From: Candidatus Hydrogenedentota bacterium | GTDB taxonomy: Bacteria > Hydrogenedentota > Hydrogenedentia > Hydrogenedentales > SLHB01 | Direction of reading: 5' to 3' | Assembly: GCA_045863335.1 (NCBI GenBank) | Contig: BTVY01000047.1 | Coordinates: 1-59,029, forward strand | DNA length: 59,029 bases | Part shown: piece after piece, positions 7,503 through 8,525 of the stretch | Layout: each line of letters opens with the position of its first letter | Numbering within the stretch: position 1 is the stretch's first letter | Position numbers and translations under genes: made by a program | Notes under the pieces: model-generated | Databases searched by the model: none | The model's input: only the letters and a program-made list of their open reading frames with translations | Told to the model about the DNA's origin: nothing

Positions 7503-7518
7503 TGGCATGCCGGTTGCT
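7503..7518 (+). promoter_or_regulatory. Sigma54 (-24/-12) promoter
   Basis: TGGCATGCCGGTTGCT with exact GG-N10-GC spacing, 23 nt before the ATG at 7542. Confidence 0.8.
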
Positions 7519-7541
7519 TTTCCCCTGCCCGGAGTTTTTCT

Positions 7542-8525
7542 ATGAACGCATTCCGGGATGACGAAACAGACGACCTGAACCGGATCGAGCGGTCTCCCGC
7601 GATGGAGCAGGTGTACGCCATGTGCACCCACGTCGCCCGGGGCAATGCCGCGGTCCTCCTGCGCGGAGAACGCGGGACCGGCGCCGCCACCATCGCGCGC
7701 GCGATTCACCGGATGAGCGCGCGGGCCGGCAACCCCTTCGTAACCGTGAGTTGGCCGGAAGTGACTGAGTCCTTCGTGGAAAACGAGTTGTTCGGGCTGG
7801 CGGGTTCCCCGGCGAATGCGTCGCACGACCAAGGCAAGATCGAGCAGGCCGAAGGCGGCACCTTGTTCATCGAGGAGGTGGGCGACTTCAGTCCGGCCAT
7901 CCAGGCGAAACTGATGCGGTGCATCCGCGAACGAACTTTTGTGAAACCCGGATCGACGACGCCCCAGCCCGCCGATGTCCGCATCATCGCGGCAAGCCGG
8001 CAGGAATTGGATCGGCTGATCGAAGAAGGCCGTTTTCTGAAAGACTTCTGCGATGAGCTGTCTGTTTTCACGATCCGCATCCCGCCATTGCGCGAGCGCA
8101 AAACGGACATCCTGCTGCTGGCCCAGCACTACCTCCGTAAACACGCCGACGCAGCGGGGAAACCGGTCCAGCGGCTTTCATCCGACGCGGCCAGCCGCCT
8201 GTTGGATTACGCCTGGCCCGGCAATTTGACTGAACTCGAACACTGCGTGGAACACGCGGTGCTTGTGTGTCCTTCAGGCGTTGTGGAACTGGAGCACCTC
8301 CCTCCCATGCTCCAGCGCGCGGATTCCTCCCCGAACACAACCGAAGATTCCCTGTCGGCGACCCTCGAATCGGTGGAGCGTACGCTGATCATCGACGCGC
8401 TACGGGCGTCGAATGGAAACCGCTCCAAGGCGGCCCAACAGCTCGGCATTACGGAGCGGCTCATGGGACTTCGCGTTCGCAAATACGGGATCGAACCGCG
8501 GGCCTACCGGTCGGGAAGCGCCTGA
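7542..8525 (+). CDS. Degenerate sigma54-activator paralogue (no sensor domain, no Walker A Lys, no GAFTGA, HTH retained)
   Basis: GERGTGAA replaces [23 protein letters not shown] replaces the GAFTGA loop; FIEEV; YAWPGN. HTH nearly identical to the upstream gene. Confidence 0.85.
   Translation: MNAFRDDETDDLNRIERSPAMEQVYAMCTHVARGNAAVLLRGERGTGAATIARAIHRMSARAGNPFVTVSWPEVTESFVENELFGLAGSPANASHDQGKIEQAEGGTLFIEEVGDFSPAIQAKLMRCIRERTFVKPGSTTPQPADVRIIAASRQELDRLIEEGRFLKDFCDELSVFTIRIPPLRERKTDILLLAQHYLRKHADAAGKPVQRLSSDAASRLLDYAWPGNLTELEHCVEHAVLVCPSGVVELEHLPPMLQRADSSPNTTEDSLSATLESVERTLIIDALRASNGNRSKAAQQLGITERLMGLRVRKYGIEPRAYRSGSA

Follow-up and report, generated by a model that had tools for sequence, protein, structure and literature searches.

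A catalytically degenerate paralogue of a NifA-like activator as a candidate brake on nitrogen assimilation in Hydrogenedentota

Gene B and its neighbors

The window analyzed here is a stretch of 59,029 nucleotides from a Candidatus Hydrogenedentota bacterium (contig BTVY01000047.1 of assembly GCA_045863335.1; contig C47 of genome G000 in our set), whose assembly comprises 6.75 Mb and is 99% complete. Four of its genes are the subject of this work: A, which codes for a NifA-like bacterial enhancer-binding protein (bEBP); B, which follows A and codes for a shorter paralogue of it; and amtB and glnK, which code for an ammonium transporter and a P-II protein. These genes, together with the promoters and palindromic sites around them, are listed in Table 1. 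The A protein passes the NCBIfam nifA model TIGR01817 with 560.6 bits (cut-off 528.85), and B, with 233.2 bits, remains below this cut-off and passes no NCBIfam model. The genome contains one rpoN gene. Nothing convincing was found in it for nifH, the best match to PF00142 reaching 47.5 bits in a search that matches all 14 control genomes as well. Since a convincing nifH is missing from the genome, A is better read as a putative activator of nitrogen assimilation, and a nif-specific role is unlikely.

Table 1. Genes, promoters and palindromic sites of the A-B-amtB-glnK locus.
Feature	Position	Strand	Remarks
Sigma70-like promoter of A (TTGACA, 18 nt, TACCAT)	5269..5298	+	10/12 consensus matches
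Operator CCTACCATATCGTACG	5291..5306	.	1 mismatch to CCTAC-N6-GTAGG; overlaps the -10 of the A promoter
Gene A	5346..6935	+	529 aa; GAF + Sigma54_activat + lid + HTH_8; NifA-like by sequence
Palindrome CCTACAATTTGGTAGG	7350..7365	.	Exact; activator-type site, 153 bp ahead of the B sigma54 promoter
Sigma54 -24/-12 promoter of B, TGGCATGCCGGTTGCT	7503..7518	+	
Gene B	7542..8525	+	327 aa, uninterrupted frame; paralogue of A without sensor or GAFTGA, with a degenerate ATPase and the A-type helix-turn-helix
First palindrome upstream of amtB, CCTACCGGCGCGTAGG	8543..8558	.	Exact
Second palindrome upstream of amtB, CCTACCAACTGGTAGG	8576..8591	.	Exact; 33 bp from the first
Sigma54 promoter of amtB-glnK, TGGCACAGACCTTGCA	8693..8708	+	
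amtB, ammonium transporter	8789..10216	+	PF00909, 409.2 bits
glnK-type P-II gene	10247..10588	+	PF00543, 82.7 bits

The B protein aligns with residues 212-525 of A, and 150 of the 314 aligned positions are identical (48%, E 2e-103). Pfam recognizes Sigma54_activat (PF00158; 142.5 bits, cut-off 20.2), AAA_lid_14 and HTH_8 (41.5 bits) in B, and GAF, Sigma54_activat (254.9 bits), the lid and HTH_8 in A; it finds no GAF in B, and no domain at all N-terminal to the AAA+ domain. All catalytic motifs are intact in A. In B, the Walker A motif reads GERGTGAA instead of GESGVGKE, with A48 in place of K247 of A, the Walker B residues DE are changed to EE, and the GAFTGA loop of A is matched by an unrelated stretch that is two residues shorter. 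In addition, R367 and R373 of A are replaced by L and E in B, where the stretch reads FLKDFCDELSV, R431 is replaced by T, and N354, the Asn of AATN, by R. We take R367 and R373 to be the Arg fingers, R431 to be the sensor II residue and N354 the sensor I residue, following the names used in work on PspF and NtrC1. The 23-residue helix-turn-helix (HTH) stretch is the same in A and B at 19 of 23 positions, and its recognition helix, TERLMGLRV, is almost invariant across the A and B families. An earlier note on this DNA, made from its letters and open reading frames, had claimed that B lacks the GAF domain, the Walker A Lys and the GAFTGA loop, that its Walker B is EE, and that its HTH is almost identical to that of A; the alignment and the Pfam searches bear out all of these points.

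The AlphaFold2 model of B, based on 16 B sequences, is confident, with a mean predicted local distance difference test (pLDDT) score of 83.4. Residues 1-15 are disordered in it; they are followed by an AAA+ core, the lid and, at the C-terminus, a helical domain for DNA binding. Among known structures, the model is matched best by ZraR, NtrX (5m7p, E 9e-26), FleQ and NtrC1, with E values from 5e-27 to 1e-21. The predicted complex of A (residues 205-529) with B scored 0.18 against a mark of 0.32, which speaks neither for nor against binding. Judged by its motifs and fold, B is a presumed pseudo-enzyme derived from A that keeps the AAA+ fold and the A-type DNA-binding domain. Lacking the GAFTGA loop, the Walker residues, the Arg fingers and the sensor II Arg, it is predicted to fail as a functional sigma54 activator: it should be unable to contact sigma54, to hydrolyze ATP, or to give a neighboring subunit an Arg finger.

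The gene order claimed for the locus, with A, B, amtB and glnK in succession, is retained in part. B lies directly after A in 11 of the 12 genomes that carry it (in G010, A is on a different contig), and amtB and glnK follow B in 7 of the 11 genomes with sequence downstream. An origin of B by tandem duplication in front of amtB was considered and received no support, amtB being directly after A in only 1 of 20 loci that lack B. The spacer between A and B is 607 bp in the window, compared with 207-335 bp in three congeners. Within the additional sequence are inverted repeats at 6996-7055 and 7267-7322 (the inverted copy), which match about 70 places in the genome, often as inverted pairs 170-280 bp apart; the pair resembles a small mobile element of the non-autonomous kind. 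Metagenome contigs of other origin accumulate over this stretch.

Distribution and constraint of the B family

A profile of 16 B proteins was scanned against 135 Hydrogenedentota genomes. B-type matches were found in 12 of them, with scores of 429.6-566.7 bits and open frames of 329-412 aa, and the best A-type match scored 410.2 bits, a clean split between the classes. The B-bearing genomes comprise all 6 of the window's genus, 5 from four other genera of the same family, and 1 of another family. More B-type proteins, of 308-333 aa, were recovered as P0002-P0012, P0062 and 8 of the best 150 cluster representatives. A match at E <= 1e-110, of A or B type, is present in 110 of the 135 genomes, and only 12 carry B; thus, B is an accessory rather than a core component of nitrogen control, and the notion that it is a general built-in part of the regulon has to be given up. 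In most of the phylum A would function without B, which is apparently not needed for activation.

The losses seen in the window's B are mostly those of its family. Among 26 A-type and 22 B-type proteins, the Phe and Thr of GAFTGA are present in 26/26 A and 0/22 B, the Walker B Asp in 26/26 and 2/22, the Arg-finger residues R367 and R373 in 26/26 each of the A type and in 1/22 and 2/22 of the B type, and the sensor II Arg in 26/26 and 0/22. The Walker A Lys is different. It is found in all 26 A proteins and is missing from 11 of the 22 B proteins, so its loss, which had been pointed out for the window's B, is correct there and is not a family trait. It is replaced by A or T in the window's clade and by P or W in P0139 and P0163. 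These substitutions differ between branches, suggesting that the Lys was lost more than once in the B family.

In a quick maximum-likelihood tree of 61 rows (one locus, L009, in which the pattern for the A N-terminus failed, was not evaluated), all 22 B rows form one clade with a Shimodaira-Hasegawa-like approximate likelihood ratio test (SH-aLRT) value of 100 and a stem of 0.73. This clade lies inside the NifA-like clade (98) and apart from 5 other bEBPs of G000. The B branches are several times longer than those of A; a long-branch warning applies, and the placement of B relative to the A proteins of the phylum is unsettled. The tree points to one ancient origin of the B family. As a side observation, many long bEBP-like proteins of the public collection (P0128, P0130, P0131, P0135, P0138, and others) have the GAFTGA motif twice, at a distance of about 243 residues, and thus carry tandem AAA+ domains in a single chain; in a few, P0125 and P0123, the first AAA+ domain is intact and the second is without GAFTGA.

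The ratio of non-synonymous to synonymous substitution rates (dN/dS) was calculated by the pairwise Nei-Gojobori method (NG86) for 15 within-genus pairs. It ranges from 0.08 to 0.24 for the whole of B, from 0.07 to 0.22 for the AAA+ part and from 0.05 to 0.15 for the HTH, in the pairs with estimable dS. The least saturated pairs gave 0.08 (G000-G005, dS 0.43) and 0.09 (G003-G005). The matching region of A gave 0.01-0.06, and dN of B exceeds dN of A by a factor of 4.5 to 10 when the same two genomes are compared (0.173 vs 0.038; 0.083 vs 0.008). No stop or frameshift was found in the 12 genomic copies of B or in the 22 B proteins. These results show that B is fast-evolving yet clearly constrained, its dead ATPase domain included, and they agree with the earlier note, which had argued from the conserved HTH that B is not a product of random decay.

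Promoters and palindromic sites

The intact frame of B, its own sigma54 promoter TGGCATGCCGGTTGCT and the operator CCTACAATTTGGTAGG ahead of it were found as described before. TGGCAY-N5-TTGCW is matched at three places of the window (7503, 8693 and 19288), with 0.09 matches expected. The palindrome CCTAC-N6-GTAGG occurs 3 times in its exact form (at 7350, 8543 and 8576), with 0.01 expected, and all three copies are in the A/B/amtB locus. They make up 3 of the 5 exact copies in the genome, lie within 1.3 kb, and are each 117-153 bp upstream of a sigma54-type promoter. In the whole genome, an exact palindrome 40-400 bp upstream of the strict sigma54 pattern is found only at the B and amtB promoters. 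A relaxed genome scan, which allowed up to 1 mismatch and accepted palindromes 60-250 bp upstream of a looser sigma54-like motif, yielded 7 co-occurrences, and the strict sigma54 consensus is met by only three of these promoters, those of B, of amtB-glnK and of a P-II/glutamine synthetase operon on contig C21 (L041, C21:76106-78290). At the last one, two one-mismatch sites 31 bp apart are located 128-159 bp before the sigma54 promoter TGGCATAGGCGTTGCT, which is followed by a P-II gene (glnB; PF00543, 114 bits) and a glutamine synthetase gene (glnA; PF00120, 442 bits).

These elements are largely shared by the B-bearing genomes. In 9 of the 12, B is preceded by the strict sigma54 pattern, G041 has the variant TGGCAT-N5-TTGTT, and no match to the pattern was found upstream of B in G123 and G124. 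The palindrome, with up to 1 mismatch, is upstream of B in 11 of the 12, at 119-153 bp from the B promoter in the eight loci measured. G041 also has a palindrome pair downstream of B with the same 33-bp spacing as the pair upstream of amtB in the window. In L035 (G034) and L036 (G041), the -12 element lies about 14-25 nt before the B start codon, and the B mRNA would be nearly leaderless in some genomes.

The layout of a -35, an 18-nt spacer and a -10 recurs upstream of A in 6 genomes (G000, G004, G001, G002, G034 and G041); the overall scan for sigma70-like promoters, with 2 matches against 1.6 expected, did not exceed chance. An operator equivalent to that at the A promoter of the window is present in G004, G001, G002, G034 and G041, and a palindrome is also found upstream of A in G123. 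Among loci without B, the operator at the A promoter is present in 5 of the 10 that could be evaluated; 12 further loci, in which the pattern for the A N-terminus failed, were not evaluated. Given its position and conservation, CCTAC-N6-GTAGG is most likely the A family's operator, with a double use in enhancement and autorepression. Naming amtB-glnK as the target, as had been done for this locus, was right as far as it went and too narrow, with sites also at glnB-glnA and at A's own promoter.

There is a hint of expression, albeit a weak one: one contig from an RNA library spans 7693-8224, with 5 of 532 letters differing; DNA may contaminate such libraries. The data comprise four sequencing runs, all as contigs, which give no starts, strand or expression levels, and stretches without coverage carry no meaning.

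Elsewhere in the window, the third sigma54-type match, TGGCATTGAAGTTGCA at 19288-19303, stands ahead of two open reading frames (ORFs), 19293-20255 and 20317-25293, and has no CCTAC-N6-GTAGG palindrome near it. The former codes for a Cys-rich, iron-sulfur-like protein of 320 aa, and the latter for a protein of 1658 aa that, judged by eye from its sequence, is pyruvate:ferredoxin oxidoreductase-like. The ORF 3561-4622 on the reverse strand has an N-terminal prepilin-type signal such as is often seen in Planctomycetes-like 'DUF1559' proteins.

Possible role of B and comparison with known systems

We propose that B is produced while A is active and then acts as a brake on it, by occupying enhancers or operators or by joining A oligomers, and we judge the chances of this proposal to be about even. 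Active A would drive transcription of B from its sigma54 promoter with the A-type palindrome upstream. B would then bind the CCTAC-N6-GTAGG sites of A, namely the enhancers of amtB-glnK, of glnB-glnA and of B itself, as well as the operator that covers the -10 in the sigma70-like promoter of A, and it may enter A oligomers as well. The net effect would be a delayed, activator-induced brake on the nitrogen-assimilation regulon. That B would be made only when A is active is suggested by the A-type site upstream of its sigma54 promoter, and a negative sign of the effect is expected because B should be unable to activate. The promoter of B needs a bEBP, and the only recognizable site upstream of it is that of A, which favors the proposal. 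Very probably B reads the sites of A, and the view that A induces B and that both read the same sites, already put forward in the earlier note, gains comparative support from the conserved sigma54 promoter, palindrome and recognition helix. The AAA+ domain of B is under selection, suggesting that oligomer contacts matter, either between B subunits on paired sites or between B and A. In a study of RedR1 and RedR2, an inactive form abolished the activation by the active form when both were co-expressed (PMC10084136). In its fullest form, the proposal is that B is a natural pseudo-bEBP through which its parent would induce its own shut-off by way of the enhancers, the parent promoter and ring poisoning, a pulse-forming negative feedback for ammonium uptake and assimilation; this is offered more tentatively, as a possibility somewhat short of even.

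Several observations weigh against this proposal. Plain competition for sites needs no AAA+ domain, yet that of B is under purifying selection, so more than a DNA decoy is selected. The Walker A Lys is kept by 11 of 22 B proteins, P0012 among them, so that some members of the family may depend on nucleotide binding. Most of the phylum lacks B, and in G002, G034, G123 and G124 it is not followed by amtB. The exact palindrome is not enriched genome-wide (5 found vs about 7.9 expected from base composition over 6.75 Mb), so its significance lies in its clustering and position and not in its genome-wide count. In G021, no palindrome with up to 1 mismatch was found, though both sigma54 promoters are present there. 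The binding of DNA by B, its contact with A and the direction of the effect are all inferred. Furthermore, the closest precedent goes the other way: VnfA3 is induced by its paralogue VnfA1, and the two share their targets and co-activate them (PMC9542535).

This precedent speaks for the first of the alternatives, in which B is a positive partner that helps A to assemble on the enhancer or stabilizes A oligomers, in the manner of the co-dependent or co-activating pairs HrpR/HrpS and VnfA1/VnfA3, or titrates an inhibitor of A, resulting in positive feedback. The purifying selection on the AAA+ domain of B would fit a role in oligomerization, the position of B beside its paralogue in 11 of 12 genomes is in line with a positive role, and RedR1/RedR2 hetero-oligomers are favored over homo-oligomers (PMC10084136). 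However, B has neither the Arg fingers nor the sigma54 loop, and each B subunit would cost the ring one active site and one sigma54 contact; the RedR ring with an inactive partner was inactive (PMC10084136). Most genomes have A without B, and the operator at the A promoter occurs in B-less genomes as well. We consider a positive role of this kind unlikely.

Another possibility is that B is an independent regulator of the sigma70 type, of the kind of TyrR, NtrX, VpsR or the NtrC of Rhodobacter and Caulobacter, with a regulon of its own, working mainly at sigma70 promoters and not at the enhancers of A. GAFTGA-less bEBPs that work at sigma70 promoters are documented (bioRxiv 10.1101/2023.06.06.543975; PMC6158489), NtrX ranks high among the structures that match the B model, and the sigma70-like promoter of A has a palindrome across its -10. 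That operator, however, is also found where B is absent, and the other palindromes found near promoters all have the spacing of an enhancer to a sigma54 promoter. In B there is no sensory or receiver domain, and its recognition helix is that of A. This explanation appears distinctly unlikely. Finally, that B is a functionless, decaying duplicate with its HTH as a remnant is very improbable: the many missing catalytic residues, the high dN relative to A and the patchy spread would suit decay, but the copies are uninterrupted, dN/dS is low in all within-genus pairs, the old B clade spans two families, and the B promoter and its upstream site are conserved.

Control over a sigma54 activator is usually exerted by its own sensor domain or by an anti-activator protein to which it is unrelated. 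If the proposed brake operates, a dead paralogue that has its parent's DNA specificity and is made on its parent's command would be a third route of control, and a clean natural case of a pseudo-enzyme acting as a transcriptional brake. It would also provide a first, testable picture of nitrogen control in Hydrogenedentota, with a GAF-type activator and a 16-bp operator that has two uses, as an enhancer (at amtB-glnK, glnB-glnA and B) and in autorepression. The parts are compact and may lend themselves to sigma54 circuits that contain their own feedback.

The full-text literature searched, from which most subscription journals are absent, yielded no description of a bEBP paralogue that is catalytically dead and controls its parent, and a search on nitrogen regulation in Hydrogenedentota found nothing. 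Related cases are known in parts. TyrR is one bEBP without GAFTGA. Others documented are NtrX of Brucella and Caulobacter, NtrC of Rhodobacter and Caulobacter, and VpsR (bioRxiv 10.1101/2023.06.06.543975; PMC6158489). Like these proteins and TyrR, B has the bEBP AAA+ fold and a Fis-type HTH, has no loop for contacting sigma54, and is predicted not to activate sigma54. Unlike B, they have retained a receiver or sensor domain and regulate sigma70 promoters on their own, whereas B adjoins an intact parent with the same helix, has a sigma54 promoter with its parent's site, and has lost the Arg fingers and sensor II as well.

B also resembles the pairs HrpR/HrpS, RedR1/RedR2 and VnfA1/VnfA3, which are adjacent or co-regulated paralogues with shared targets or hetero-oligomers. 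In these pairs, so far as is known, both partners have intact ATPase and GAFTGA motifs, while B would be constitutively dead. The co-dependence of the HrpR/HrpS type does not apply here, B being without catalytic competence and A occurring without B in most genomes. NifL, PspA, FleN and HrpV are likewise dedicated proteins, encoded near a sigma54 activator, that control it negatively, which is the outcome proposed for B. Those proteins are unrelated in sequence to the activator and bind its AAA+ domain; B is instead a paralogue that retains its DNA-binding domain. Among the LuxR-type regulators, TrlR and TraR of Agrobacterium are a case in which a defective paralogue antagonizes its parent. 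The concept is shared with B, but the protein family is different, and the antagonist lacks the DNA-binding part that B keeps. Taken together, B appears to unite the traits of GAFTGA-less bEBPs with those of interacting bEBP pairs; in addition, it has lost the sensor and the trans-acting residues completely.

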